Positions 3,958 through 47,742 of a stretch of 57,022 nt of DNA are shown one piece after another. The notes beneath the pieces are model-generated. The model did not search any database. It was not told the origin of the DNA and saw only the letters and a list, made by a program, of their open reading frames with translations. Source of the stretch: a virus; UHGV virus genome UHGV-1526745. One strand, 5' to 3'. Position 1 is the first letter of the stretch. Each line of letters opens with the position of its first letter. The position numbers and the translations under genes are program-made.

Positions 3958-3980
3958 AATTTGGTCGCAATTTGGTACAC
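3958..3980. promoter_or_regulatory. direct repeats AATTTGGT(C/A), putative integrase arm-type sites (left arm)
   Basis: CAATTTGGTCGCAATTTGGTACAC; same motif repeated three times at 56771..56813 next to int. Confidence 0.4.
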
Positions 3981-4009
3981 AAAAAAGAAACGAGGCGTTA
4001 GCCTCGTTT
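3978..4009 (-). terminator. rho-independent terminator after tail-fibre operon
   Basis: Hairpin AAACGAGGC-GTTA-GCCTCGTTT followed on minus strand by CTTTTTTG. Confidence 0.5.
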
Positions 4010-6333: not shown

Positions 6334-9300
6334 TTATGCTGTAGTTGATGCGCTGAATGATCCTGTTCCTCTTGATACTAGCATTGTTGGAGAATACAAA
6401 GCTGTACAATATGAGTAGCCTTCTGATGCTGATGTTTGTGGGCAATATATTTGCCCGGTAATACTTGATGCCGTTAAACCAGAAAAAGCGCATTGCACTG
6501 TTAATGTGCATCCACCATAAGGAACGTAATATTGAATTGTTTTACTTTTACCTCCGCAACTAAACGTTACGTTATAAGTTGATCTATATTCACCAGATGC
6601 TAATGAAATCGTCGCCATAAGCATAACTGATTTCCTCAATGGACTATCCGTGCTGTCGTTATATGTGATGGTTGCGTTATAACTTCCGTTATACCCAAGC
6701 ACTCGATCTGGACCAACCCCCATGTTAGCAACATCACCAACAAACGTTTTAGCTTCCACCGTTCCTGTGAATTTACCGCTACTTGCATACACCTTGCCCC
6801 TTACAGTTACGTTGTTGAACTCCGCGTTGCCATTTTTATCAATCATCCACCCGGCAGATCCTGATGCGTAGTTTGTTGACTGTATTCGCTGTGCAATCTT
6901 AGCGGTAGTGATAGCTGCATCTGCAATTTTAGCCGTCCCTATTGATGCGTCTTTAATAAACGCTTCGCGCACATACATTGCGCCATTGGTGACATAGAAA
7001 GGCGATTGATATGTGCCGTTTGCCGCAGTCATTAACACGAAGCGATCAACCAGGAAAATACACTGCGATTGAAAGTTAGTCCCGTCACCAGTAAGGCCAA
7101 GCGACATACCTGTTGCGTATGTTCTGCCGTTGCTATCTGTTGCCAGCTTGATTGAATACGACGCATCTACATTACCTTTAAAGTCGGTAAGCGCTTTCGA
7201 TGTTGTCTCTATAGCGGTTTTGTTCCCGTTAACGGTCACTGTCAACTGATCAATTTTGCTTGATAATGCTTCGTCAGCCGTTGCCATAGCCTGCGACCAT
7301 TCCGTGATGCTTGAATTTACATCTTCGAAAGACGCCGAGATCTGGACAAATTTTTCAGCGCTTGATGCCTCGTGATTTGCGAGTGCCGTTGAGACATCCA
7401 TTATTTTTGCTGAAATGTTTTCATTAATATTTGCCTCAAGCGATGCTATAGCCTCCGCGCGGGCCTGGGTTTCGTCTGCTATTGCTGTATCGATCCTTGC
7501 TATTTCCGCTTTTGTTTTTATCTGGCCTTTCCTGTATTTCGCCTCAATAACAGTGCCCATCTTGCTTTGCGCTATTGAGTTGTTGATAAGTGCAATCGAG
7601 GCGTTTTGCAGACTTGCTTTCGCCTGTTCTATCTTGTCGCTGTTTTTATCAACATCACTTTCAACAGAACCAAGCTCCGCGCTGATGCCTGATATTGCCT
7701 GTGCGCGGGCGCTTGATTCATCGGCAATCGCCTGATCCAAGCGTTTAACGCTGGCGTTCGTGCTATTTTCAAGCGTTGTTAAATCAGCCTTAACATCCGT
7801 TATTGCGTCGCTTCTTGCCTGCGTTTCATCTGATATTGCTTTATCAAGGCGGGAAACGCTGGCGTCAGTTTTCTTATCAAGATTGCTTATTGCTGCGTTT
7901 ACACCGTTAATAGCTTCAGCGCGGGCGCTGGCCTCGTCAGCAACTGCGCGTTGCACGTTAGAGATTTGGCCTTTAAGGTTGGAATCCATCGTATTCATTT
8001 CTGCCGTGATGGTTTCCAGTGATTCCGCAGTCGCTTTTTTCTCTTCAGCGATAACGTTGTCAATACGGTCAATTTCCGCCTTCGTCTCTGTTCTACCTTT
8101 TTTGTACTGAGCGGTAAGAGTTACACGGGTGTTAGTCTGTGCAAGTGAGTTATTAATAAGAGCAATAGAAGCGTTTTGCAGGCTTGCTCTTGCTTGCGCC
8201 AGTTCGCTGTCAACTTTTTCGCTAGATACCTCCAGCGAGTCTATTCTAGACTCATGCTGTCCAATATCATCGGCGTTTTCCTTAACCTTTTTATAAAGAT
8301 CTTCCGTTTCTTTTTTAAGTGTATCCGTGTCAGCTTTTATTGACCCTGTTTCTGTGATTAGGTTGTCAGTAGCAGTTTTAAGGTCATTCGTAGCGCTTTC
8401 GATAAGATCGGTGCGGTCGCCAAGATCCTTAATATCACTTACCATTCCCTTAAATTGCTCTGAATTCATCACGTCTTTGGTGACGTAATCGGTGATTTCA
8501 TCAAAGTTTTCTGTTGGCTTGCCTGATGCTTCAACGAAGTCTGACACACCAAAGGCATTACGCGTGCGCACATAAACGTAATAGGTGTGCCCCGTGTTCA
8601 TGCCGCCAAAAGTCCACTGATGACCACGCCCGGTATATTGTGCTTTAGTGGTTACTGATGCCGGATCGGTGATTTGTGTTTCACCTGAGTAATAAAACTC
8701 ATAACTAGTGTCAGTGGTAAGCGTTGTTCTGCTGATCGGGTAAACTGTAGCCTGAAATACACCGGGAACCCAGTTAACTCCTACCGGGGCCGCTGGTGCG
8801 CCAATAACCAGATCCACAATGCTTTCCGCACCCTTCATGCCCGTGTCATTTCTGCCACGAATGCCTAGTGAGTAGTTGCCAGCATCAATACCATAAAAAT
8901 CATAACTGTAATTCGTAGTTTCGTAGCTTTTAACTACGGCCCCCTCTGAATTATATACGCGGATTTCAAATGTCAGGCGATGAGTTGTCGTCAGTGTTTC
9001 CCATGTTGCGCGGCATTGAACTGTTTCAGATCCAATATTTAACACCTTCAGGTTTTCAATGTTCGGTACGCGGAAGTGATTAAGCGTGTCGTTGTTGACC
9101 TCAAAGATTGCGCCATTATCTACTACAGCCTGTTTGTGCGGGTCATGCTGTGATGCCTCTACAGTGTACACGCTATTATTTTCTGTTTCTGCTACGCTGG
9201 TGATTCGACACAATACGGGTTTTGCTGCGTTAGTTGACACAGCAAATACAGTACCGTTACGAATCCATGCCGGGGCGGATGCAAGGGTAATTTTATTTCC

Positions 9301-10914
9301 GCTAACTCCGGTGATCTGGTGTTTTTTAAATTTGCCATCACTATCAAGCAGGCTGATGGTGTCACCAGGGGCGATATATTCAGAATCAACTTTATCGACC
9401 GTGATAACCCTGCCATTGTTTGCCACGATGCGACCGCCTAAACGAGCGCCTGCGCGGTTATTGTCGAGTATCTCGATAATATCACCAGGGGTGAAGTGAA
9501 TTGCGTCACGGGCCATTTTAAACGTGAATTTTGACGGCTCGCGTTTTGCTGTTTCTATCAGCCATTTGCCAGCGCGGTACGCTTGCCCGCGTGACGTGCA
9601 ACCGAAAGCCTCTAGCGTGGTTTCGTTATAACCATCGCGGGCGATCAGTTCATCATCTGCCACATATTCTTTTGATTGCTCCCAGCCGTTTTCTGGGTCA
9701 GTCCATGATACGATCACGGCGTTGTAACATTCTGCAAGCGGAAGGCTTGAGCGAGTAAACGCGCCATCAACGACGTTTGCATTTGTGATGGTGGCAATTG
9801 GATCTTGTGGCGCATCAATCATCACGGTAAGGCGTTGCCCGTCCCATAACGCGATGCCACGGAACATACCTGCGATGTTATCCAGTAGGTCGCGGGCGCT
9901 CATTTGCTCCGTAATGTAAGCGTTGAGAGTCATGCGAGGTTCAAGGCCACCATAGCCATCATCAACCAACTGATCGCAGTATTGAGAAAGCACATACAAA
10001 GCGCCATCATCAACATCAATGTAACCAGCATGTCTAGCAAGCCCAAAGCGCTCGTTTTTAACCAGATACCGGAAAATCCACGCAGGGTTATTGGTGTACG
10101 CTTTTTTGAATCCACCAAGCCATAAACCCGAATATGTGCGCGTTTCTGTGTTGTAGTTATCAGGAACATCAACAATCAGGCCGCGAAGGTGATAGGTACG
10201 GGTGGGCGTATCAGTATACTGATCATGGTCAATTACAGCGCCAGCCACGGCGGTATGAGGATAAGACAGGTTATCATCTATTATTTCGCTGTAACTACTC
10301 CACCGCGTATCATTCCGCAATAGATCGCTGTTGCTGTCTGCTGTTATGCGACGAACGCGAATATCAAACGGCTTTTCATCAGGCGCGTTGATAACGTGAG
10401 CTTCCAGGTATTCACCACTCTGTTTACCAGGCCCGATTGTAATGTATTTAACAGGCGACCACGTCGATGATAATGATGGCTTAACATCAACCATTAACAC
10501 AACGGATGTATTGTATTGATTGCCCTTATCATCTGACTGAACGAGAGCATCAACACCAAGATTCAACCTGACGCGGGTAACGTTTGGATCTGAAACAGTC
10601 CTGATTATTGGCGTGTCGTGAGTTACCTTTGCGTTGACGATAACGGTTGATTCGATGGCATTAAAACCATTAATCGGCGATTGGTCAGCCGTGCCGTTGC
10701 GCCAGGCTATACTAATCCCCGGGATTGATGTATTCCCGTTTGCGTCAGTAACAGGTGTGTCATTAAGCATCACATCATTTAGTGGCGCCTTCTGGTTTAC
10801 CGGACCGTATATCGGCCCTTCGCTGAGAATATCTAAAACACGATAAAACTGTTTATGATACAGGTTATCGTTTAATAATACTGGTGTCTTGGCTTTGCCG
10901 CCGCCGCTACTCAT
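6334..10914 (-). CDS. host specificity protein J-like central tail fibre / tip protein
   Basis: 1526-aa ORF at lambda J position after I/K/L homologues; long coiled-coil repeat segment in middle. Confidence 0.85.
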   Translation of the reverse strand: MSSGGGKAKTPVLLNDNLYHKQFYRVLDILSEGPIYGPVNQKAPLNDVMLNDTPVTDANGNTSIPGISIAWRNGTADQSPINGFNAIESTVIVNAKVTHDTPIIRTVSDPNVTRVRLNLGVDALVQSDDKGNQYNTSVVLMVDVKPSLSSTWSPVKYITIGPGKQSGEYLEAHVINAPDEKPFDIRVRRITADSNSDLLRNDTRWSSYSEIIDDNLSYPHTAVAGAVIDHDQYTDTPTRTYHLRGLIVDVPDNYNTETRTYSGLWLGGFKKAYTNNPAWIFRYLVKNERFGLARHAGYIDVDDGALYVLSQYCDQLVDDGYGGLEPRMTLNAYITEQMSARDLLDNIAGMFRGIALWDGQRLTVMIDAPQDPIATITNANVVDGAFTRSSLPLAECYNAVIVSWTDPENGWEQSKEYVADDELIARDGYNETTLEAFGCTSRGQAYRAGKWLIETAKREPSKFTFKMARDAIHFTPGDIIEILDNNRAGARLGGRIVANNGRVITVDKVDSEYIAPGDTISLLDSDGKFKKHQITGVSGNKITLASAPAWIRNGTVFAVSTNAAKPVLCRITSVAETENNSVYTVEASQHDPHKQAVVDNGAIFEVNNDTLNHFRVPNIENLKVLNIGSETVQCRATWETLTTTHRLTFEIRVYNSEGAVVKSYETTNYSYDFYGIDAGNYSLGIRGRNDTGMKGAESIVDLVIGAPAAPVGVNWVPGVFQATVYPISRTTLTTDTSYEFYYSGETQITDPASVTTKAQYTGRGHQWTFGGMNTGHTYYVYVRTRNAFGVSDFVEASGKPTENFDEITDYVTKDVMNSEQFKGMVSDIKDLGDRTDLIESATNDLKTATDNLITETGSIKADTDTLKKETEDLYKKVKENADDIGQHESRIDSLEVSSEKVDSELAQARASLQNASIALINNSLAQTNTRVTLTAQYKKGRTETKAEIDRIDNVIAEEKKATAESLETITAEMNTMDSNLKGQISNVQRAVADEASARAEAINGVNAAISNLDKKTDASVSRLDKAISDETQARSDAITDVKADLTTLENSTNASVKRLDQAIADESSARAQAISGISAELGSVESDVDKNSDKIEQAKASLQNASIALINNSIAQSKMGTVIEAKYRKGQIKTKAEIARIDTAIADETQARAEAIASLEANINENISAKIMDVSTALANHEASSAEKFVQISASFEDVNSSITEWSQAMATADEALSSKIDQLTVTVNGNKTAIETTSKALTDFKGNVDASYSIKLATDSNGRTYATGMSLGLTGDGTNFQSQCIFLVDRFVLMTAANGTYQSPFYVTNGAMYVREAFIKDASIGTAKIADAAITTAKIAQRIQSTNYASGSAGWMIDKNGNAEFNNVTVRGKVYASSGKFTGTVEAKTFVGDVANMGVGPDRVLGYNGSYNATITYNDSTDSPLRKSVMLMATISLASGEYRSTYNVTFSCGGKSKTIQYYVPYGGCTLTVQCAFSGLTASSITGQIYCPQTSASEGYSYCTALYSPTMLVSRGTGSFSASTTA

Positions 10915-11458: not shown

Positions 11459-12138
11459 TTGTCAGATCTCCATATTGAGTTGGTCTGTCGAACATACGCG
11501 GGCCGCATTTGTTCGCGGCGGCTTAACAGTCCGGCATTGTCATGATGCAAAACAGTGTTATCGCCCAGGTAAATCATCGCGTGACATGGGTCAGCGCCTT
11601 TAAACGGCTGGCGGATAATCACATCACCAGGCTGAATACTTTTCGCGTCAACCATGAAAAACCCGTTCAATGGCAGGTTTTTTATGTACAGGTTTTCCCC
11701 ACGCAGCCACCATCCGTCGTGGCGTTCAAAATCCGGTAGATCCACGCCGCAAAGGTGATAGGCGTCACGAAAAAGCGAGTAGCAGTCTGTTTTCCCGTGC
11801 TCAAATTTACGGCCTAACAGGTGCGCCACCGGGCGGAATTTTCTAACCCTGCCACCGGAACACAAATACCACGGCAGGCCTGAAATAACCTGCTGTTGTC
11901 GATCCCGTGCTGACAATACCAACGAATTGTCAGTATGGGAGTGAAAAACGGCAGTTATAACGCCTAATTCGTCAGCTTTGATATAATCGTCAGGCGAGAT
12001 TTTAAAGCTGTTGTGCGGCGTTTCAGACACGTTGGCGCACGGGTAAAAATAATCGTTATCTATCACCAGCCCGCACACTTCCTCGCACTGGTGGGCTGCC
12101 GCATAGCGAATCATTTTATCTTCAAGTGCCATAATCAA
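11401..12138 (-). CDS. tail assembly protein K (lambda gpK-like, NlpC/P60 + JAB-type)
   Basis: 245-aa ORF between L and I homologues; Cys/His motifs consistent with gpK family. Confidence 0.75.
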   Translation of the reverse strand: MIMALEDKMIRYAAAHQCEEVCGLVIDNDYFYPCANVSETPHNSFKISPDDYIKADELGVITAVFHSHTDNSLVLSARDRQQQVISGLPWYLCSGGRVRKFRPVAHLLGRKFEHGKTDCYSLFRDAYHLCGVDLPDFERHDGWWLRGENLYIKNLPLNGFFMVDAKSIQPGDVIIRQPFKGADPCHAMIYLGDNTVLHHDNAGLLSRREQMRPAYVRQTNSIWRSDKCSNLDLRAIFEDITARCV

Positions 12139-12839
12139 CCCACCTTACTGGACCCAGGGAAGCACGAAATCGGTAACGGATTCGGGCGTGGAAAACGCAA
12201 ACGGCAACCGCTAAGGCGGTGGCTGCATTTGTCCAGCTTTGGATCACTGGTAGATTCGTCTTTATCGGTAGCTACAGGTCCACCACTATATCCGCAACCG
12301 TCGCCGCGATATTGCCATTGGCAAACGTCAGCGAGGATTGTGCGCCCTGGGATAACCGCCTTGTCAGCATCAATTGGCGTTGACAGTTCATATTGCACCT
12401 GGTCGGCTGTTTCTTCGCTCATCGCCTCAACGACGTAAAAAGACACCGCCTCGATAGATGGATCTGCATCCGGGTTGCCGTTTGGGAAGTTGATGGCGTC
12501 CAGGTATTTTACTTCCACCTGGCGGCGTGTAACCTTCATTCCTCGCAGGTCGTTGAAATCGTTGTTCATCCCGGTGATTAGCCCGCCAATGTTGGCTACT
12601 ACCATCTGCGGGCGTGAGTAAACGCCTTCGTTTTTCATTTCGAAGCCAGTGGCCTCGATTGGGTAGCTGTTGTAAGTCACTCCCTTCCAGATAACCGGGC
12701 CGTAATAGCCATTCGCTCCGGAATGGAAGCGGATAACCTCGCCACCCATGGGCGTGAGGTCTAATTCAAACAAGTCAATGACCGCGCCGACTCCGGCATC
12801 GACGGAATCAATAATCATCTCTCTCGGAATATTGCGCAT
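12135..12839 (-). CDS. minor tail protein L (lambda gpL-like)
   Basis: Track ORF 12135..12872; ATG at 12839 after AAGGTGAG; C-terminal CxxxxC...C motif and overall similarity to gpL. Confidence 0.8.
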   Translation of the reverse strand: MRNIPREMIIDSVDAGVGAVIDLFELDLTPMGGEVIRFHSGANGYYGPVIWKGVTYNSYPIEATGFEMKNEGVYSRPQMVVANIGGLITGMNNDFNDLRGMKVTRRQVEVKYLDAINFPNGNPDADPSIEAVSFYVVEAMSEETADQVQYELSTPIDADKAVIPGRTILADVCQWQYRGDGCGYSGGPVATDKDESTSDPKLDKCSHRLSGCRLRFPRPNPLPISCFPGSSKVG

Positions 12840-12857
12840 TTTCTCACCTTGTAATTT

Positions 12858-12873
12858 TGTGATCTGCGTCACG
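12858..12873. promoter_or_regulatory. CRP-like binding site TGTGAtctgcgTCACG
   Basis: Matches TGTGA-N6-TCACA consensus at 9 of 10 positions; centred ~63 bp upstream of predicted start of plus-strand promoter at 12893..12921. Confidence 0.4.
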
Positions 12874-12892
12874 CTAAATCATACCAAAACGG

Positions 12893-12921
12893 TTGATCGC
12901 GATTTTTACAATATGTATATT
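12893..12921 (+). promoter_or_regulatory. sigma70-like promoter for plus-strand moron cluster 1
   Basis: TTGATC-N17-TATATT upstream of ATG at 12938. Confidence 0.4.
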
Positions 12922-12937
12922 GTACTCAAAAGGAAGC

Positions 12938-13123
12938 ATGGTTAACAAAATGGCGCTGAGGTGTGAAATGGATGATAAGGTGTGGAGGTTGACGGTGTTC
13001 CTTGCTGATGGCAGGAAAATGACTGTGGCCCTGTATAAAGATGAAGGCGAGGCACTTACCGACGCGCTCTTACTCGCTGAAGATGAACGCGTTTTGGGGT
13101 ACAGGATCGAACCTGTCAAATGA
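12938..13123 (+). CDS. hypothetical moron protein (61 aa)
   Basis: ATG with AAAAGGAAG RBS inside track ORF 12893..13123; opposite strand to tail operon. Confidence 0.4.
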   Translation: MVNKMALRCEMDDKVWRLTVFLADGRKMTVALYKDEGEALTDALLLAEDERVLGYRIEPVK

Positions 13124-13135
13124 GAGGTTAACGAA

Positions 13136-13486
13136 ATGCAAAAATATAGTTTAGAAATATGGACTGATAAGTGTGAATGGGAGCGCATGGGCCTGTTTGA
13201 CACATACGCCGCAGCGCGTGATGAAGGTAGTGAGTTACTTCGCTGTTGGTCTGGCGCTCGTGATTTTGATATTACTCCGGTCCAAGTACCGGACCTGGTG
13301 GAAGAGATGAACCCGAAAGATATTAACTTTAACGTCAATGTTGAATTTGCAGACTCTATGGATCAGGCTTGCCCTGGTGAAATACACGCAAAAGGTTTTC
13401 CGGCTGACGATCCAGAAGCAAAACGAGAATACGAAAAAGCTGCGAAAGACTTCTGCATAGATAACCTGGCCGCATTCGATAAATAA
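13136..13486 (+). CDS. hypothetical moron protein (116 aa)
   Basis: Track ORF; tightly follows previous gene; no family recognised. Confidence 0.45.
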   Translation: MQKYSLEIWTDKCEWERMGLFDTYAAARDEGSELLRCWSGARDFDITPVQVPDLVEEMNPKDINFNVNVEFADSMDQACPGEIHAKGFPADDPEAKREYEKAAKDFCIDNLAAFDK

Positions 13487-13495
13487 GGCGGCAAC

Positions 13496-13744
13496 ATGGG
13501 GCGGCGCAATCACGGCGATTATGTGTACACGCTGAAACAGGCCGCCCGCCTCATCGGTTATCATGAGCACGAATTTATTGATTTGCTGATTGAGCGCGGG
13601 ATACTGTACCAGGTCTGTTTAACGCTGTACCCGAAAGCGAAATACCTACAGGAAAAGTTATTCATCATCATGACGGATGAAAACCAGGTTAATCATTCAT
13701 TCGTCACTGATAAGGGATTGACATATTTGAAGGGGGCGTTATGA
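13496..13744 (+). CDS. hypothetical moron protein (82 aa), possible HTH
   Basis: Track ORF; segment YTLKQAARLIGYHEHEFIDLLIERGIL looks helix-turn-helix-like. Confidence 0.45.
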   Translation: MGRRNHGDYVYTLKQAARLIGYHEHEFIDLLIERGILYQVCLTLYPKAKYLQEKLFIIMTDENQVNHSFVTDKGLTYLKGAL

Positions 13745-13819: not shown

Positions 13820-13847
13820 AACCCCGCCGTGGCGGGGTATTTTTTAA
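13820..13847. terminator. rho-independent terminator ending moron cluster 1
   Basis: Hairpin CCCCGCC-GTG-GCGGGG followed by TATTTTTT. Confidence 0.5.
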
Positions 13848-14056
13848 TCGTAGGATAGAAATGCTACTTCTTTGCCATCCCAAGTCGTACAGCCGATATA
13901 TCCATCACCCATATCATGAAGATACCACGTCTCGCCGTTATCAGCTTGTACAGTTAGATCATTAATTTCATAGTCGGCAAACAATGTAAAAGCGCCAGTG
14001 CGCTCCACTACACAAAAATAAGGCATATCCCCTCCCCTAATTAATAACTTGCTCAA
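13844..14056 (-). CDS. hypothetical protein (70 aa)
   Basis: Track ORF between M homologue and terminator; no family recognised. Confidence 0.35.
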   Translation of the reverse strand: MSKLLIRGGDMPYFCVVERTGAFTLFADYEINDLTVQADNGETWYLHDMGDGYIGCTTWDGKEVAFLSYD

Positions 14057-14390
14057 ATGTTGCGTTTAGCGTGTATAGCGGTCCGTCTTTAGTCATGCTC
14101 CAGCTACGGCAAACAAAAAGCCTTTGCACGTTATCCATTGACGGCGACCAGTAAAAAGCCTCGACCGCGCCGCGCGCCCTCAAGAATGCTTCCGCCTGGA
14201 TTGCTACGTTTTCACCATCACCACATCCGGCGCTACTGCCCTTAAACACCAGGGTGTAGCTATCAAGTAACGGGTTGATACCTTTAACCTGTCTTTGCTC
14301 ATAACCATCGCCCAGCTTAACAACTGATACGTCCGGCTCCCTGGTCACGCTGTAGCTTCGTTGCGGCGTCCATCTGAACACTTCCGGCAT
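14037..14390 (-). CDS. minor tail protein M (lambda gpM-like)
   Basis: MPEVFRW... start after GGGGG RBS; FRW and GDGY motifs and C-terminal FEQVIN resemble lambda gpM (ends FEQVVN). Confidence 0.75.
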   Translation of the reverse strand: MPEVFRWTPQRSYSVTREPDVSVVKLGDGYEQRQVKGINPLLDSYTLVFKGSSAGCGDGENVAIQAEAFLRARGAVEAFYWSPSMDNVQRLFVCRSWSMTKDGPLYTLNATFEQVIN

Positions 14391-14423
14391 AAAACCCCCA
14401 TAAGTCACATTTTGTATATATCT

Positions 14424-14447
14424 TTACGCGCCTCTACGCGAAAAATG
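14424..14447. promoter_or_regulatory. conserved 24-bp element TTTACGCG-N4-CTACGCGAAAAAT (copy 1)
   Basis: Near-identical copy at 27213..27236; both immediately upstream of minus-strand genes (M, portal). Confidence 0.35.
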
Positions 14448-14558
14448 AGATCTTAATCACAATGATTATAGCTAGTTTACAAAATGGCTTCACATAGTGC
14501 GCAACAAGATGTATATAGAAAGCAAGAAGAAAAGCAGTACCAACGAAGGAGGCCAAAA

Positions 14559-14714
14559 ATGAAACGCTATGTAGTGGTAATGCTGAACAACGCATTCGAA
14601 CAAGTGGAAATAGCAATCGTTAAGGGCTTCGACGACGCATTCAAATACGGTCAATTCATGATGAATGCAAAAGAAGATGAATACCGTGATTTCTTCCTGA
14701 AGGCACTCAACTAA
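14559..14714 (+). CDS. hypothetical moron protein (51 aa)
   Basis: ATG after GGAGG RBS within track ORF 14484..14714. Confidence 0.35.
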   Translation: MKRYVVVMLNNAFEQVEIAIVKGFDDAFKYGQFMMNAKEDEYRDFFLKALN

Positions 14715-14731
14715 GGATGATGGGGTGAGTT

Positions 14732-14986
14732 ATGAAACTGGTAGCGATTGATAAAAACCTGAAAGTACAGAAAAACGCACAAGACAGGATTATCAAGAAA
14801 GGGAAGGAACTGCTTAAAGCATTTTTGAAGAAAGAGGCGCGCCCCAAAAAGTTACGTGATGGTTATGGCTTTAAATTCGACATCAACCCTGACTGGAGGC
14901 TGTTTAGCGAAGACCTAAAAGTCTGGTTAATTATCGATCATCTGGAATATAACAGGCACTGTGGAGTCAAAGGGGTGCATAAGTGA
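14732..14986 (+). CDS. hypothetical moron protein (84 aa, Lys-rich)
   Basis: Track ORF; no family recognised. Confidence 0.45.
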   Translation: MKLVAIDKNLKVQKNAQDRIIKKGKELLKAFLKKEARPKKLRDGYGFKFDINPDWRLFSEDLKVWLIIDHLEYNRHCGVKGVHK

Positions 14987-15095
14987 GGTGGGACATGGAG
15001 GACGATAAATTCACCTGGCGGGAGATCTGGAATATTTGGTTGGTGATGTTCGGCAGTGGTTACGTCGCACGTAACGGAAGATTATAGGAGGAAAA

Positions 15096-15281
15096 ATGAT
15101 TATTGACGAAACAGAGTTATGTTACGGAGTTAGGTTAGATCTTGATGAGGATGGTCGGCTATGGATAACCGAACTCATGGGGACTGACACCCTCGTAATT
15201 GACAAATCGCAGGCGACGCAACTTATCGCCGGGCTTCAAAAATTTATAGATGGCACATTTGAGAACGATCAGGAGGATTAA
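15096..15281 (+). CDS. hypothetical moron protein (61 aa, acidic)
   Basis: Track ORF with AGGAGG RBS. Confidence 0.4.
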   Translation: MIIDETELCYGVRLDLDEDGRLWITELMGTDTLVIDKSQATQLIAGLQKFIDGTFENDQED

Positions 15282-15283
15282 CA

Positions 15284-15571
15284 ATGGATTTAACCGTCAT
15301 TGGTCACGCACTGGCTGCGGCGGCTATGCAGGTTGTTATCGGCCTGCTTACTGGTGATTATCTCACTGGCGGCCTGATTGGATGTACATTCTTTTTTGCA
15401 CGCGAACACACGCAGGCTGAATATCGTTACATAGCGGAATTTTGCGGTGGAAAACGGGAAAGAATGCCGTGGTATGGCGGATTATTACCTAAAGCATGGA
15501 ATATGGCTAGCGTTTGCGACTTCGCCGCACCTGTATTCCTGTGCTGTTTGATTTATATTCTCACCATGTAA
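15284..15571 (+). CDS. hypothetical inner-membrane protein (95 aa)
   Basis: Track ORF; two or three hydrophobic segments. Confidence 0.5.
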   Translation: MDLTVIGHALAAAAMQVVIGLLTGDYLTGGLIGCTFFFAREHTQAEYRYIAEFCGGKRERMPWYGGLLPKAWNMASVCDFAAPVFLCCLIYILTM

Positions 15572-15575
15572 AATA

Positions 15576-15596
15576 AAGGCCGCTTATAGCGGCCTT
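15576..15596. terminator. bidirectional rho-independent terminator (after TMP and after moron cluster 2)
   Basis: Hairpin AAGGCCGC-TTATA-GCGGCCTT with T-tract on minus strand and A/T flank on plus. Confidence 0.5.
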
Positions 15597-17986: not shown

Positions 17987-18027
17987 TATACAAAATGGCT
18001 TTACTTCAACGACTCCATTTTGTATAA
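17987..18027. promoter_or_regulatory. perfect 12-bp inverted repeat TATACAAAATGG-N17-CCATTTTGTATA
   Basis: Read directly; sits between TMP start and plus-strand lipoprotein gene. Confidence 0.45.
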
Positions 18028-18073: not shown

Positions 18074-18733
18074 ATGAAACGGTTAGCAAAAGTGGCAATG
18101 ATTGCGGCGGTATTGGGTCTGGTTGGTTGCAATGAGGATAATGAAAAAGCGCCTATAGTGACCAATCAAGAACAACAAGCATTAGCAGAGAAAAATGCTA
18201 AATGGCTTGCAGAACAACAAGCAAAACAAGCCGCATACGATGCACAGTTAGAAAAAGAAAATGCTGGTAAACAGTGGCTTGTAGTTGAAAGAAAAGATGA
18301 TATGCAGGACGCAAAAAACGTATTCCTTTTTGTGAAAGCAGAACAATTCAGCGGAAGTCTTGATGCTTTCCCGACACTGAAGGCACAGGATAAGAATAAA
18401 CCGGTATTAACAATCGCTTGCCAGGGTAATAAAACAAAAATGTTCGTAGCATGGTCACACCATGTAACTGACGCCGGGGACACTACTTATATTAACTACC
18501 GGATCGGCGTTCACAAAGCTGTAGCTACTGAGTGGGGGCGGTCAACTAATTATAAAGCTCTTGGATTATGGGATGGCAAAAAAGCCATCCCAATGATTAA
18601 AAAAATGGTTAACGAAAAACAATTCATCATTGAAGTAGTGCCGGAAGCTGGCGACATTGAGAAAGCAGTGTTTAACATTGATGGTCTTTATAACCACATC
18701 GACAAAGTGAAAAACGCTTGCAACTGGAATTAA
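18074..18733 (+). CDS. lipoprotein (219 aa) moron
   Basis: Signal peptide with LVGC lipobox; GGTGGG RBS. Confidence 0.6.
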   Translation: MKRLAKVAMIAAVLGLVGCNEDNEKAPIVTNQEQQALAEKNAKWLAEQQAKQAAYDAQLEKENAGKQWLVVERKDDMQDAKNVFLFVKAEQFSGSLDAFPTLKAQDKNKPVLTIACQGNKTKMFVAWSHHVTDAGDTTYINYRIGVHKAVATEWGRSTNYKALGLWDGKKAIPMIKKMVNEKQFIIEVVPEAGDIEKAVFNIDGLYNHIDKVKNACNWN

Positions 18734-18743
18734 GGGGTAAATC

Positions 18744-19118
18744 ATGAAAAACATAATCAAAGCGGCTCTCATTGGTGTTATGGCTTTAGCTCTTACAGGG
18801 TGCGCAAGATCAACTGATTTCGTTAAGTTAGCTGATAAAAAATTGCAAGTTGGAATGACTTGTGAGCAAGTGAATAAAATAATGGGGGAACCACAAAGAA
18901 TCGAGCATGACGGTAATTATAGTTATCACGTATGGTATTCAGTAACCAGCACGATAGGATTTACTTACATGGATGTTGAAGAATTATCCCCTTCAAGGGT
19001 TATCGCAAAGTTTGATAACTGCATCCTAAAAGAATGGAAAGATCGCAGTAAGGCAAAGTCTGTATACAATACAATCACACACAGTTCACCAGGTACAGCA
19101 ATTAAAGATTTCAATTAG
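18744..19118 (+). CDS. lipoprotein (124 aa), BamE/SmpA-OmlA-like
   Basis: Signal peptide with LTGC lipobox; QVGMTCEQVNKIMGEP resembles SmpA/OmlA motif. Confidence 0.55.
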   Translation: MKNIIKAALIGVMALALTGCARSTDFVKLADKKLQVGMTCEQVNKIMGEPQRIEHDGNYSYHVWYSVTSTIGFTYMDVEELSPSRVIAKFDNCILKEWKDRSKAKSVYNTITHSSPGTAIKDFN

Positions 19119-24969: not shown

Positions 24970-25831
24970 CCTTATAGTTTTCTTGCGCCCGATCTAATAT
25001 TCGTTTGTTTAATATGTTACCGTCTTCGTCAACCAATACGGTAATCGTGCTACATTTGCAGTTAATTGAATTTGGGGATCTGCTCCACCATTCGCGCTGC
25101 TCATCTATGGTGTATGTTTTCCCGTGCCGCTGCGCGTGCGATAGCCTGGTAGTCGGTGACAATGCCGAAATGTGCATTTGCATGGTGCGCAGATTAAGCT
25201 CTTCTGTCGCCGCTTCTGCCTCATCCATACGCGCTGTGCGTAACGCTGTGCATATTTCAGTTCGGGCAATACGTTTGCACCTGTATAGCGGCAATTGCGT
25301 TTCCTGCTGCAATGTGCGCGCTATTTCCAGTGGATTTAAACCACGGGCCATCCCTTCGGTTAATCGTCGGGCCATATCCTTCTTGATCTGTGCTGTTAGC
25401 CCGCGCATTTCCTCAAATACACGGGTACGAACAAGGGCAAGGCGCGTGCGGTAAGTCGTACTTGATAGCACGGCGGATACATCAGGATAAGCGCTTGAGT
25501 AAGTAACAGACTGGTTGGCAAGGTTGGCGTACTCCTGTGCCGTGCCGCGCTGATATGCCACCTTCACGTATTCCTGCCAAAACCAAAAACTTTCCGGGTC
25601 GGTTAGCTCGAATATCTCATCAATCATGTCGCTGGCGTCCTCCAGCATGTCGTGCAATTCATCCATGTAAATCTGGAAGGTGTATTTTTTATTAACAGCC
25701 AGGCTATATTGTATTCTGTCCAGTATGGCGATATACGGATCTGCAACTTTCTTCAGGCAGGCTTTAAAACGCTTAATAGCACCAGACCGTAACTTCCATG
25801 TCATGGTCGGGTCTTCGGTGTTAGATGGCAT
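24935..25831 (-). CDS. head morphogenesis protein (Mu F / SPP1 gp7-like)
   Basis: Track ORF 24935..25879; internal ATG at 25831; follows portal gene. Confidence 0.55.
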   Translation of the reverse strand: MPSNTEDPTMTWKLRSGAIKRFKACLKKVADPYIAILDRIQYSLAVNKKYTFQIYMDELHDMLEDASDMIDEIFELTDPESFWFWQEYVKVAYQRGTAQEYANLANQSVTYSSAYPDVSAVLSSTTYRTRLALVRTRVFEEMRGLTAQIKKDMARRLTEGMARGLNPLEIARTLQQETQLPLYRCKRIARTEICTALRTARMDEAEAATEELNLRTMQMHISALSPTTRLSHAQRHGKTYTIDEQREWWSRSPNSINCKCSTITVLVDEDGNILNKRILDRAQENYKVAHAKYGEDWE

Positions 25832-27212
25832 TATCGCGGCTGGAGGTATTCGCCTGATTATCTTCTTCACCTTCATCATCGTCTTCCTCTTCCGTTTCCA
25901 CTACACTGGCAGGGCCGTCGTATCCGGCAGCCTCGCGGATTTCGTCACCGCTAAATATTTCTTCACCAGTAGCCAAACAAGCCTGATTGATTTGTGCCAT
26001 CTTGTCTGCGGCTTCCAGTAGCTCTGCTTTGGTCATGGCGTTCAGGTCGTCCCATATAACCGATACGTCAATTGGCATACTGATAAGGCGGAGATCTGCC
26101 ATCTTGCGGAATAGATCCTCAAGCTCACCGCCGATTTCCTCCCTGCGGGTCATGCAGCGGCTGTTGAAGTAACGCAGGTCTTCGGTTGATGCGCGTTCTC
26201 CCTGCTGGTTCCCAACCAAGATGCGGGTTGGAATATCAACACCAGCGGCGGCGGTTTGCAGGTTTACGTCATAGGTTGATGACGGGTCAGATACGGCAGT
26301 AACCAGCGGGCTTACTGTCGCACCCTGTAACGCCATCATTACGTCATTACCCTTATTCATTTCAGCCGTAGCCTCATTGAATCTTTCGCGTAACTCTGTA
26401 ACGTCGCAATCGTATGTTGCAGCCAGGGAACGGAAGTCAATCTCTTTATCGAACGAAATGGCAAGCTGACGCGCTGCGTTTTTCAGGAATGATTCACCAC
26501 TACCGCCTTCCACTTTTTCCAGTGATACGAATGCGTTGTAGGAAGGTTCAAGGAAAGCGATGACATCATCAGAATAGTCGCCAAAGATGAATATGCGGTC
26601 AGGGTGGATCTTTCTGGCAATGGTCTTACTGTTAATGCGTTCTTTGTATTCCCACCACGTTGGCAGGCCATAGTTTTCATTATCCGGGTTTTCTTCGAAG
26701 TCCTTCGGTGTAAGAGCGCCAGCCCACACAGGGGTAAATTTTGCAATGCCTACGCCTTTTGTCACTGGCTGATCCCACGGCTTGTTATCTCTGATATGAA
26801 TTAACAGACCAGAGTAACGACCAATGAGGCGGCGGCGATCACATTCAGCAACAGTGCGCCAAAATCTGTTGTTAAATTTCTTCTTGATTTCTCTTTCCCA
26901 CGGTGTTTCCTTTTTCGCTTTCTCGTCTTCAGTTCCTTCAATCATCTTTGGCTTGGTGCGCCAGCAAGTAGTAACAATCTTTTCTACAGCACCGTGAGCG
27001 ATGCCGCCGCGTCTGTACAGTTTGTATAGATCGTGATACGTGATCTCTTCTTTAAATCCGTATTCACTCCACGCAGCATCACGTTTGGCATCTATCCCCA
27101 TAGTGAACGGATGTGCCGCTGCATAGCGGGCAAAGGCCGCCTGTCGTTGTGACAAGGCAGCATTAACCGCCAGTTCTATATTAGATGGCATAATGTTTAC
27201 TCCTGAATACAT
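25821..27212 (-). CDS. portal protein
   Basis: 463-aa ORF immediately after large terminase; acidic C-terminal tail. Confidence 0.7.
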   Translation of the reverse strand: MYSGVNIMPSNIELAVNAALSQRQAAFARYAAAHPFTMGIDAKRDAAWSEYGFKEEITYHDLYKLYRRGGIAHGAVEKIVTTCWRTKPKMIEGTEDEKAKKETPWEREIKKKFNNRFWRTVAECDRRRLIGRYSGLLIHIRDNKPWDQPVTKGVGIAKFTPVWAGALTPKDFEENPDNENYGLPTWWEYKERINSKTIARKIHPDRIFIFGDYSDDVIAFLEPSYNAFVSLEKVEGGSGESFLKNAARQLAISFDKEIDFRSLAATYDCDVTELRERFNEATAEMNKGNDVMMALQGATVSPLVTAVSDPSSTYDVNLQTAAAGVDIPTRILVGNQQGERASTEDLRYFNSRCMTRREEIGGELEDLFRKMADLRLISMPIDVSVIWDDLNAMTKAELLEAADKMAQINQACLATGEEIFSGDEIREAAGYDGPASVVETEEEDDDEGEEDNQANTSSRDNAI

Positions 27213-27236
27213 GTTTACGCGTTGCTACGCGAAAAA
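27213..27236. promoter_or_regulatory. conserved 24-bp element TTTACGCG-N4-CTACGCGAAAAAT (copy 2)
   Basis: Directly abuts portal start codon. Confidence 0.35.
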
Positions 27237-27269
27237 TAGAAAAACTTGTGGGTAGTTGTGAGTCAGATT

Positions 27270-38873: not shown

Positions 38874-39033
38874 AATGCTCTCTCCTTTTTCAGGTGATTT
38901 TTACGCATTTCAGCGTTACCGGATTTTTAAAGAGCATTTTGTTTGTTTGAAGTATACAAAACGGATACATGCGAACAAACAATAAAGCGCCATTATGTGA
39001 TCCGCATCACACAATGACGCCATTTTGTAAACA

Positions 39034-46289: not shown

Positions 46290-46750
46290 AATCTGATCTC
46301 CGTATATCCTTGATGATACTTAATAAAAAATCATCTTCGTTAATTGCCGCACTTCCAGCGGCTGACCAGATTGTTAATGAGCGGCTTAACATCTTTCAAC
46401 TAATCCCGCAATCATCGCCGTTCCCGGCGTGACCTTGCTCACTCCAAGCAAGCTGACTCGTCGCCTTGCGTGCGGTTTCGTGGGGGATGTAACGCTTTAA
46501 ACACCCCATGCGCCTTGTTATCAGTGCCGCTTTCGGTCCCCCATCGGGGAGTTACTCCACGGTTGACAAGGTGTTAAGCCTGATTTTTAAAGTGCCAGGA
46601 AGTTGCTTTTGTTACCTGCGCCCTTCCTTTGACTCGCAATATACGCCCCGTAAAACATCGAGTCAATCCATTTTGTATACTTTTTTAAAATATTTTATAT
46701 GCCATTGATATTTAAATAATAAATAACGTTTTCTGTTTACGTTTTGGTGT

Positions 46751-46789: not shown

Positions 46790-47437
46790 TTATGGCAGGT
46801 TTACGATCTTCGCATCAACCACCACGCCTATAATTTTTGATTCTGGATTCATAGGGATTGGCGGATACAGCGGATTGAGCGAACGTAAAAGCCTTTGACC
46901 TCCATCAATAATCAACTGTTTAAACGTCGGTATCTGCCCTTCCTCAAGCTGGGCTATAACCAGTTTGCCGTCAATAGCTGGCGCGTGCGGGTCCACAAGT
47001 ATCATCGTCCCCGCCGGGATGCTCAACCCCTGCGGCGCGTTCATTGATTCACCTTTGGCAACCAGCCAGTAACTGTCATCTGAACAAATAACGCTAGTCG
47101 TAACGTGTCGTAATGCTGAACGCCTTGCGTCATCCATATTGTTTACTGTGTCCTTCCAGTCAATAACCGGGTAACTACCTAAATCACGCGGCGGCACGGC
47201 CTGAAGTGTATTAGAAACAGAATCATCAATGACCATGCCATCATGTGTAACAGTAAACTGCCGACGACCAAGCTCGCGCATAATCCGCGCAATATCTTCA
47301 AGATTTGGCTCTCGGCGACCGTTCAGCCAGTGTGACAGGCCGCCTTTAGTTATCCCCATACGATCCGCGAGCGAATCCTGGCTCATGCCCTGCGCCCGCA
47401 TGAGCTGCTTTGCTAAGTCATACCATTTTGTTTTCAT
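46790..47437 (-). CDS. CI-like repressor (HTH_XRE + S24 LexA-like peptidase)
   Basis: N-terminal HTH (QDSLADRMGITKGGLSHWLNGRREP), C-terminal KGESM / ILVDP autocleavage-type region. Confidence 0.85.
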   Translation of the reverse strand: MKTKWYDLAKQLMRAQGMSQDSLADRMGITKGGLSHWLNGRREPNLEDIARIMRELGRRQFTVTHDGMVIDDSVSNTLQAVPPRDLGSYPVIDWKDTVNNMDDARRSALRHVTTSVICSDDSYWLVAKGESMNAPQGLSIPAGTMILVDPHAPAIDGKLVIAQLEEGQIPTFKQLIIDGGQRLLRSLNPLYPPIPMNPESKIIGVVVDAKIVNLP

Positions 47438-47439
47438 GT

Positions 47440-47742
47440 CGCTACCCTATAACCTCAAAAAGTTTGATGCAAGTCACAAAACGTGTATTTTAAGCCTTGA
47501 TCTTAAAATTCCATTTTGTAAACTTGCAGACAAGGTAAGGCCATACTTGCAAAGACGCAAGGAAAAAGATAACGGAAGGCACAAAAAGGCACTTACCTTA
47601 TGCTCTTTAAAAATCCGGTGTCGCTGCGAAGCGAAAAACAAATATCACGCAACGGCGGGATCTGTTGAGCGGTCAGTCACTGCTATCTAATGCTAATGGG
47701 ATGCCCGCCCGCGCGTTCACTCTAACCATAGGAGAAAATGCG
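47440..47742. promoter_or_regulatory. right operator/promoter region
   Basis: Divergent intergenic region; inverted repeats CTTGCAGACAAG and CTTGCAAAGACGCAAG (47523..47562) plus CCATTTTGTA motif. Confidence 0.4.

Follow-up and report, generated by a model that had tools for sequence, protein, structure and literature searches.

Two copies of a 24-base element stand in the leaders of two late genes, those for the portal protein and for the minor tail protein M, in UHGV virus genome UHGV-1526745, a stretch of DNA of 57,022 nucleotides which is referred to here as the window. Judged by comparison with homologous loci, this is a real, family-specific cis element under strong constraint. We consider it best explained, with a probability of roughly 40%, as a hairpin in the leader of the sense-strand RNA that would act post-transcriptionally.

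The window is, by its similarity to known phages, an mEp021-like (mEpimmI) prophage; the region is 83-92% identical to Enterobacteria phage mEp021, to five more mEp phages, and to Escherichia phage MagusPhagus. The mEpimmI group comprises Nus-dependent, non-lambdoid temperate coliphages (PMC11893012), and the mEp021 family was found in 34 of 5,426 complete E. coli genomes.

The Element and Its Two Sites

All late genes of the window lie on the minus strand, and the element is therefore described on this (gene) strand, where it reads ATTTTTCGCGTAG-NNN-CGCGTAAA or, with its positions numbered, A1-TTTTT-C7GCG-T11AG-N14NN-C17GCG-T21AAA24. The plus-strand sequence is TTTACGCGCCTCTACGCGAAAAAT for copy 1 (14423-14446) and TTTACGCGTTGCTACGCGAAAAAT for copy 2 (27214-27237). 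A first-pass annotation, made from the sequence of the window, had recognised both copies, but with coordinates that were one base off (14424..14447 and 27213..27236), and had put their identity at about 20 of 24 positions; the count is 21, with all three mismatches falling within the 4-nt spacer. Both copies are sense-oriented with respect to the minus-strand morphogenetic genes that follow, M and portal, as had been claimed, and their ends lie 32 nt before the ATG of M (copy 1) and 22 nt before the ATG of the portal gene (copy 2). The likeness between the sites runs past the 24 bases, to TCT(C) upstream and S-AT-R-TAT-N-CA downstream, and gives way further upstream to about 45% identity over 39 nt, which is within chance for AT-rich DNA.

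14423..14446, minus strand: element copy 1, M leader, ATTTTTCGCGTAGAGGCGCGTAAA
27214..27237, minus strand: element copy 2, portal leader, ATTTTTCGCGTAGCAACGCGTAAA
14413..14450, minus strand: block common to both copies, TCT(C)-element-S-AT-R-TAT-N-CA, from alignments
14427..14440, minus strand: predicted core stem-loop of copy 1, CGCG-UAGAGG-CGCG, from the fold and the consensus fold of 21 variants
27218..27231, minus strand: predicted core stem-loop of copy 2, CGCG-UAGCAA-CGCG, with a stem that is the same in all 49 portal loci

Copy 1 occupies part of the 168 nt that separate M from a divergent plus-strand cassette, copy 2 part of a 78-nt same-strand gap between the stop codon of the large terminase gene (terL) and the portal ATG. 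The operon discontinuity with which the first-pass annotation had associated both copies is, thus, present at M but not at the portal gene. Nor does the association hold as a rule: the leaders of the tape-measure gene and of the tail protein L gene follow the same kind of inverted cassette and neither contains a copy, so that the element is not a general feature of restarts behind such cassettes.

Conservation Among Homologous Loci

The significance of the element comes from comparative conservation and not from the match within the window. Homologous loci were retrieved independently of the motif, by means of the M protein, the N-terminus of the portal protein, or a 21-base anchor upstream of M. 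The element is present in 30/30 M loci from IMG/VR (M identity at least 82%), in all 49 portal loci found via the portal N-terminus, and in each of 20 metagenome loci found via the anchor, one of which ends inside the element. In mEp021 and MagusPhagus, both copies are exact, with two per genome and divergent flanks. The mean pairwise diversity at the 21 fixed positions is 0.023 in the M loci and 0.003 in the portal loci, compared with 0.19 and 0.12, respectively, in the rest of the intergenic region and 0.24 and 0.09 at the three spacer positions; the fixed positions are, thus, 8- to 40-fold less variable than the adjacent non-coding DNA.

Related phages, to which the first-pass annotation had pointed, bear the element out within the family, since both copies occur in all of the approximately 100 members sampled, whereas more distant relatives are without it. 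Nothing similar precedes the portal gene in ES18, SPN3UB or Cronobacter phage ENT47670, the terL or portal genes of which share about 70% DNA identity, and the element was not found before M in those prophages of other Enterobacterales whose M is 60-72% identical, where M follows either the tape-measure gene directly or a same-strand accessory gene with its terminator. An IMG/VR scan with 17 fixed bases returned 88 loci, all from the same family except two in unrelated contexts (L036 and L080), a number expected by chance, and a metagenome scan for more variants recovered only those already known.

Within one window alone, a 21/24 match is not rare and not clearly beyond chance. An all-against-all scan for pairs of 24-mers with at least 21 matches gave seven pairs, compared with a mean of 0.9 in ten Markov shuffles; real signals are over-represented among such pairs, the remaining ones comprising, among others, nutL/nutR2 and a repeat found at both ends of the prophage. 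The expectation of 0.02 for the element pattern is post hoc, the pattern having been derived from the same data. No further copies with up to three mismatches are present in the window, and the looser pattern TACGCG-N4-TACGCG, with up to two mismatches, matched coding DNA only (9 versus 4.6 expected, which is not clearly above chance).

The Predicted Leader Hairpin

The element holds a direct repeat, CGCGTAG/CGCGTAA, with its units 10 bp apart and, because CGCG is self-complementary, also an inverted repeat, TTT-n-CGCG ... CGCG-n-AAA. The first-pass annotation was right on both the direct TACGCG repeat and the CGCG stem. In RNA, the predicted stem consists of three U-A pairs, a U.U mismatch and four G-C pairs around a loop UAGNNN, with an extra U-A or U.G pair possible at element positions 11/16. 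The stem of copy 1 can be extended by U/A pairs to 14423-14444. In a 41-nt context, the folds have -9.4 kcal/mol (z = -1.9) for copy 1 and -6.2 kcal/mol (z = -0.65) for copy 2, and from the end of the stem to the Shine-Dalgarno (SD) sequence it is 13 nt at the portal gene and 27 nt at M.

Natural variants of the element are few and comprise A1>G, T6>C, a T-run shortened by one T, and A12>G, position 25 being free; positions 14-16 vary freely (CAA, CTA, CGA, AAG, AGG, AAT), and the loops seen are UAGAGG, UAGCAA, UAGAAG and UAGAAU. The sole substitutions at the CGCG stem positions are C7>T in one lineage and C17>T in one contig; as C7>U and C17>U, both yield G.U wobbles, which pair in the sense RNA only, and no CGCG stem pair is broken. 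The remaining changes are all found at predicted unpaired positions (1, 6, 12, 14-16, 25 and 26), and the substitution in the T-run falls on the predicted mismatch. A 1-nt deletion in the loop or spacer of one lineage, represented by two samples (L164/L165), keeps the hairpin and alters the phase of the direct repeat from 10 to 9 bp. Each of the 19 distinct core variants (27-28 nt) folds as a hairpin of -5.9 to -9.6 kcal/mol, and the consensus fold of 21 sequences is this same hairpin. Spacer types have, moreover, been swapped between the sites, with CAA at the M site of locus L157 and AAG at the portal site of L230, which suggests that the two copies are interchangeable.

This pattern of wobbles, change at the mismatch position and loop deletion is what a sense-RNA hairpin, the reading preferred here, predicts. 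Given the invariance of the loop bases U-A-G and of the flanks, together with the near identity of the copies, it is probably the sequence, and not only the shape, that is read by a protein. The element would, on this reading, be a cis-acting stem-loop, 5'-UUU-U-CGCG-[UAGNNN]-CGCG-U-AAA-3', in the late-transcript leaders of portal and M, acting after transcription on the gene that follows. It may provide a protected 5' end after cleavage in the adjacent upstream U-rich tract, serve as an insulator that leaves the ribosome-binding site unpaired, or be the site of a phage or host RNA-binding protein by which the head and tail-tip modules would be co-regulated through their first genes.

The leaders themselves contain the following sites, of which the portal leader is nearly invariant as a whole.

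27192..27248, minus strand: portal leader, TTTTTCT-element-CATGTATTCAGGAGTAAACATT, per-column diversity about 0 in 30 unique sequences
27200-27204, minus strand: SD of the portal gene, AGGAG, inside this leader
14395-14399, minus strand: SD of M, GGGGG
14465..14470, minus strand: TATAAT, 18 nt before copy 1, without variation in any M-type locus though its flanks vary

A weak -35, GTGAAG, is found 17 nt upstream of this TATAAT, and the pair did not reach the threshold of the promoter scan; it is likely, from these matches, that TATAAT is the -10 of a weak internal sigma-70 promoter for M, from which copy 1 would probably also be transcribed. In one IMG/VR locus (L081, 2695420423_000006, oriented 8670-9565), a gene for a 158-aa HNH-like protein separates the element from the SD of M, having been inserted behind the element plus the following ATGTAACTTAT, so that M is displaced downstream and its leader taken over. 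The element, therefore, belongs to the 5' part, or leader, of the unit and not to M.

The gene order and the known behaviour of lambda-family Q, for which the phage has a gene (PF03589), would place both copies within the late mRNA. This long, Q-dependent transcript would start near 32335, at the following site.

32289-32340, minus strand: candidate Q-dependent promoter of the late genes, immediately before the holin gene and the lysis genes, with -10 TAAAAT (32340-32335), -10-like AACAAT (32327-32322) and intrinsic terminator t5 (32307-32289)

Together with the upstream sequence AAACAAAYAGAT, these parts show hardly any difference between the window, mEp021 and MagusPhagus, although further upstream mEp021 has another sequence; AACAAT resembles the lambda AACGAT pause element. 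The candidate lies about 5 kb upstream of the portal copy, with the structural genes downstream on the same strand, and is a much better late-promoter candidate than the element.

Several observations weigh against a leader hairpin. It is short, and its folding energy is not significantly below that of shuffles at either copy, with z values near 0 in 91-nt contexts. Compensatory double changes support none of its eight pairs in this little varied family; the wobble-preserving single changes at two pairs are transitions, with about 0.25 expected by chance among changes of this kind according to our estimate, and carry little weight. It overlaps neither SD nor AUG, unlike classical translational operators. 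Pfam and PHROG scans of about 40 proteins, the small late ones among them, were uninformative and yielded no trans-acting factor. One candidate for such a factor was rejected, being absent from mEp021, although present in MagusPhagus: it is a 71-aa protein with the arginine-rich stretch RHNKRQRRKWARM, encoded at 35514..35729 on the minus strand in the small-gene cluster after Q and assigned to PHROG 8758, a family with no assigned function. Finally, the conserved T-A-G (11-13) mirrors T-A-A (21-23), for which a direct repeat in double-stranded DNA is the simpler explanation.

Of the three functions that the first-pass annotation had offered, a late promoter has become weak, whereas the two at the RNA level fit better with sense-oriented leaders and a retained hairpin. 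A classical translational operator would, however, be expected at the SD or AUG, and a processing site stays hypothetical.

Competing Readings

The main rival, possible though on balance unlikely, is a protein site in double-stranded DNA, in which CGCGTAG and CGCGTAA would form tandem units 10 bp apart on one face of the helix, bound by a phage or host regulator whose role would be that of a roadblock or repressor, of an architectural factor, or of an elongation-factor loader. Such a repeat accounts for T11-A12-G13 being as conserved as T21-A22-A23 and for N14-16 being free; 21 conserved base pairs approximate a protein footprint, and two copies per genome are usual for dedicated phage regulators. 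Phasing by 10 bp is typical of tandem winged-helix or CII-like binding, and CGCG-N6-CGCG has the geometry of the lambda CII box, TTGC-N6-TTGC. The viable-looking lineage in which the units are 9 bp apart speaks against such a site, as do the T-run and AAA flanks, which pair in the hairpin but have no counterpart in the direct repeat. With no promoter at the portal copy, only a roadblock role within the Q-modified transcription unit would be left. A candidate binding protein was not found among the proteins scanned, and the resemblance to CpxR boxes misses CGCG, the most conserved bases.

An activator-dependent late promoter, which we regard as improbable, would have its repeats at -27 to -12, AAANRT (22-27) as the -10, and a start at C33-A34, and would add timed transcription of the head and tail-tip modules. 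The critical -10 positions, A23 and T27, are invariant in all variants, C33 and R34 are a conserved pyrimidine and purine at the predicted -1/+1, and a start of its own for M behind an inverted cassette would be reasonable. P1 late promoters have a repeat or palindrome at a similar position around -21. Its placement also recalls Q-binding elements (PMC6606751). Yet the -35 is missing, the -10 agrees with the consensus at 3/6 positions, the scan is blank, and the portal transcript would start at the SD with a leader of 13 nt. At M, such a promoter would be redundant in view of the invariant, perfect TATAAT upstream; the tape-measure and L leaders do without it behind like cassettes, the candidate Q late promoter is elsewhere with a different upstream sequence, and no activator gene was identified.

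A non-functional duplicated piece of leader or module boundary, conserved through the youth of the family or by gene conversion, is very improbable: the copies do lie at mosaic joints (terL alleles meet at the stop codon, variable cassettes stand beside M), spacer types have moved between the sites and a repeat of this quality within one window is not rare, but youth cannot explain a sequence whose non-coding neighbours are 8-40 times more variable, gene conversion without selection cannot fix it over about 100 independent genomes, and the element has been retained beside the insertion of a foreign gene.

Comparison with Known Regulatory Elements

The sigma-70 consensus scan gave no promoter at either copy, and inspection revealed no -35-like hexamer accompanying the element. 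Across the variants, only AAANRT keeps A-11 and T-7, and as a -10 it would start the portal transcript at the first SD base; the hexamers following the element, TRTATN and TATNCA, are without conserved A-11/T-7. A sigma-70 promoter is, thus, poorly supported, given the blank scan, the absent -35 and the poor -10 match, and one on the opposite strand (TTTACG-N17-TAGAAA/TGAGAT), which has no conserved A-11/T-7, is rejected. An intrinsic terminator is equally rejected, given that the stem is not followed by a U tract on either strand, the gene strand continuing with UAAAGAUA or UAAACAUG and the other strand with AAAAAU, and that the terminator scan was blank.

Among the phage's own signals, the nut sites come closest. 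The three described for mEp021 are recognisable in the window.

47601-47634, plus strand: nutL, TGCTCTTTAAAAA-N7-TCGCTGCGAAGCGA, boxA and purine-rich loop
46346-46383, minus strand: nutR1, CGCTCATTAACAA-N8-GCCGCTGGAAGTGCGGC, boxA and purine-rich loop
about 38911-38934: nutR2, matching nutL at 22/24 positions

Like the element, they are short GC-stem hairpins in two to three near-identical copies per genome, sense-oriented in untranslated leaders with diverging flanks, and the nutL/nutR2 pair is recovered by the same all-against-all scan. However, the element is not preceded by a boxA (GCTCTTTAA or CGCTCATTAACAA; the phage's own boxA sequences are CGCTCATTAACAA and TGCTCTTTAAAAA), its loop is UAGNNN (or AGNN), and it is situated in the late region, whereas the nut sites are in the early one. 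A lambda-type nut site is rejected, since an GCUCUUUA-like boxA was not found about 8 nt upstream and the loop is not a GNRA-like, purine-rich pentaloop as on the 5-bp stem of a boxB; the sequence that abuts the stem upstream is (GA)UCUCAUUUUU or UUUUUCUAUUUUU.

According to PMC6606751, a Q-binding element (QBE) occupies the interval between the -35 and the -10 of a late promoter, with a -10-like pause element and a terminator after it; the separate locus at 32289-32340 fits this arrangement. The element under study shares with a QBE a direct repeat of 6-bp units next to RNA polymerase (21Q, TGAGCA twice), in a phage that has Q, but differs from AAACAAAYAGAT, the conserved upstream sequence of the candidate late promoter. 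Since copy 1 is downstream of its TATAAT and copy 2 is without a conserved promoter, a QBE is rejected.

The box of lambda CII and P22 C1, TTGC-N6-TTGC, flanks the -35, has the -10 12 nt downstream, and serves lysogeny. Both copies of the element have an equivalent tetranucleotide repeat with a 6-bp gap, and few copies per genome are common to both systems; however, the expected -10 position holds CAAAAT or CAATAT at M but CAGGAG, the SD, at the portal gene, and the genes that follow the copies are late ones. Among the proteins scanned, which cover part of the open reading frames, none was recognised as a member of the CII family. A CII-type box, the geometry of which fits, is rejected on these two grounds, the -10 position at the portal gene and the protein scan.

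The CpxR box is GTAAA-N5-GTAAA. Set against this consensus, the element, as GTAGN-N5-GTAAA, matches 8 or 9 of 10 positions with the same 10-bp period, but CGCG and the T-run are outside the consensus and the first unit has G where A is required, so that the resemblance is partial only. NagC/Mlc operators have TT and AA at -6,-5 and +5,+6 of the symmetry centre, 9 bp apart (PMC4288165); this class is rejected, the symmetric TT and AA of the element being 15 bp apart.

At the RNA level, translational operators of the classical type (MS2 coat, T4 RegA, gp43) overlap the SD or AUG, and the stem of the element ends before the SD at both sites. The 5' hairpins of the ompA type and the processing sites of T7 late mRNA are similar in being small hairpins after a U-rich single-stranded tract and before the ribosome-binding site, within a long late transcript. 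Stabilising 5' or intercistronic stem-loops are, however, constrained in shape, whereas the loop and flanks of the element are invariant and its copies near-identical; its stem is far too short for RNase III. No Rfam family overlaps either copy even at E <= 10. Also rejected were a coding sequence (overlapping small open reading frames are not conserved, and 1-nt indels upstream shift the frame), a terL-portal read-through or fusion (frames are not conserved, and TAG is in frame with terL in some genomes only), a pseudoknot or anti-SD pairing of the loop or of the upstream UCUC (conserved neither between the sites nor within the family), and a site at which the toxin-antitoxin-like cassette next to copy 1 would regulate itself, there being no cassette of this kind near the portal copy.

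Genomic Neighbourhood

The identities of the genes around the two copies were checked with Pfam.

14037..14390, minus strand: minor tail protein M gene, lambda-M family (PF05939, E = 7.5e-28), downstream of copy 1
12135..12872, minus strand: tail protein L gene (Pfam)
25821..27191, minus strand: portal gene (PF06381, E = 1.6e-19), annotated as portal in relatives, downstream of copy 2
27270..28784, minus strand: large terminase gene terL (PF17289), annotated as terL in relatives, its stop codon 32 nt upstream of copy 2
28759..29274, minus strand: small terminase gene, Sf6-type (Pfam)

In RefSeq E. coli prophages (H48-H59), the portal homologue has been named 'anti-CBASS protein Acb1 family protein' by the NCBI pipeline; Pfam assigns the same protein (window 25821-27191) to Phage_portal_3, and its gene occupies the canonical portal position, so that the Acb1 name is probably a naming artefact. 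The mEp021 record (L003, 28919-28945) has ATA where all other genomes use the portal ATG, and its depositors, thus, began the portal gene at an ATG one base past the element. The ATA may be a sequencing error, the assembly being from SOLiD reads, or a shifted start. Portal loci L220, L232, L234, L239 and L241 differ from the rest in terL, two unrelated alleles of which have the terL stop codon as their exact junction with one and the same portal module; the intergenic leader stays linked to the portal gene.

The tail operon is split three times by inverted accessory cassettes on the plus strand (12874-13744, 14559-15571 and 18074-19118), which have their own promoter-like sites and bidirectional terminators (15576-15596, 13821-13838). 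The cassette beside M encodes a 51-aa protein and a ParE-like toxin (14732-14986, PF24732), another one a KilAC-domain fragment (13496-13744). Common to the divergent regions ahead of L, M and the tape-measure gene, which are related to each other, are GCCATTTTGT(A/T) and a plus-strand cassette promoter of the type TTCACA-N17-TATATA; the tape-measure leader has GATCnCATTTTT in common with the M leader and then runs directly into the SD without a hairpin.

A further motif, TACAAAATGG / CCATTTTGTA, is found at 46667-46677, 47510-47520, 14478-14488, 17989-17999, 18014-18024 and 12944-12954, besides weaker copies. It is placed directly upstream of -35-like hexamers, the form in the immunity region being TACAAAATGGA-TTGACT-N17-TATATT, and recurs at the promoters of two of the three plus-strand cassettes in the tail operon; at the third, before L, the copy (12944-12954) is in the 5' leader of the cassette instead. 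Upstream of the tape-measure gene, it makes a 12-bp inverted repeat. The motif may be the operator of a CI-like repressor (46790..47437, minus strand) or of another regulator, and such a regulator may couple the cassettes and tail promoters to immunity.

A direct repeat matching at 22/24 positions, AATTTGGTCGCAATTTGGTACACA at 3958-3981 and AATTTGGTCACTATTTGGTACACA at 56791-56814, 52.8 kb apart, is built of AATTTGGT units. Its right copy adjoins the integrase gene (55591..56838), and the window contains no tRNA gene. The repeats are probably the prophage ends or integrase-binding repeats.

Significance for the mEpimmI Phages

Early control in mEpimmI phages, by a repressor, the N-like Gp17 and three nut sites, has already been studied. 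The description of the group in PMC11893012 contains nothing on this element or on late-gene control, the 2023 Gp17/nut study being outside this scope. What has been found here is a sequence-specific leader element, with few copies per phage genome, that fits none of the named systems which it resembles.

It is quite unlikely, though conceivable, that the hairpins are RNA sites of a phage factor and, hence, part of a second RNA circuit in the late operon beside N-like Gp17/nut and Q. The factor might then act in the manner of a nut-like loader, taking polymerases from the internal M promoter through the bidirectional cassette terminators, or might adjust, at the level of translation, how much portal protein is made relative to tail-tip protein.

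Temperate coliphages of the mEpimmI group are common in the human gut but little studied, and their tail operon is unusual in being interrupted by three inverted cassettes, which bring promoters and terminators of their own. Should the element be read by a dedicated factor, it would represent a new small regulatory circuit; if it is a leader hairpin only, it would be ordinary mRNA architecture, and an ordinary leader hairpin or operator is the most likely outcome. As an invariant element in two copies at the starts of the head and tail-tip modules, it would offer a mutable handle on the proportioned expression of a fragmented late operon.

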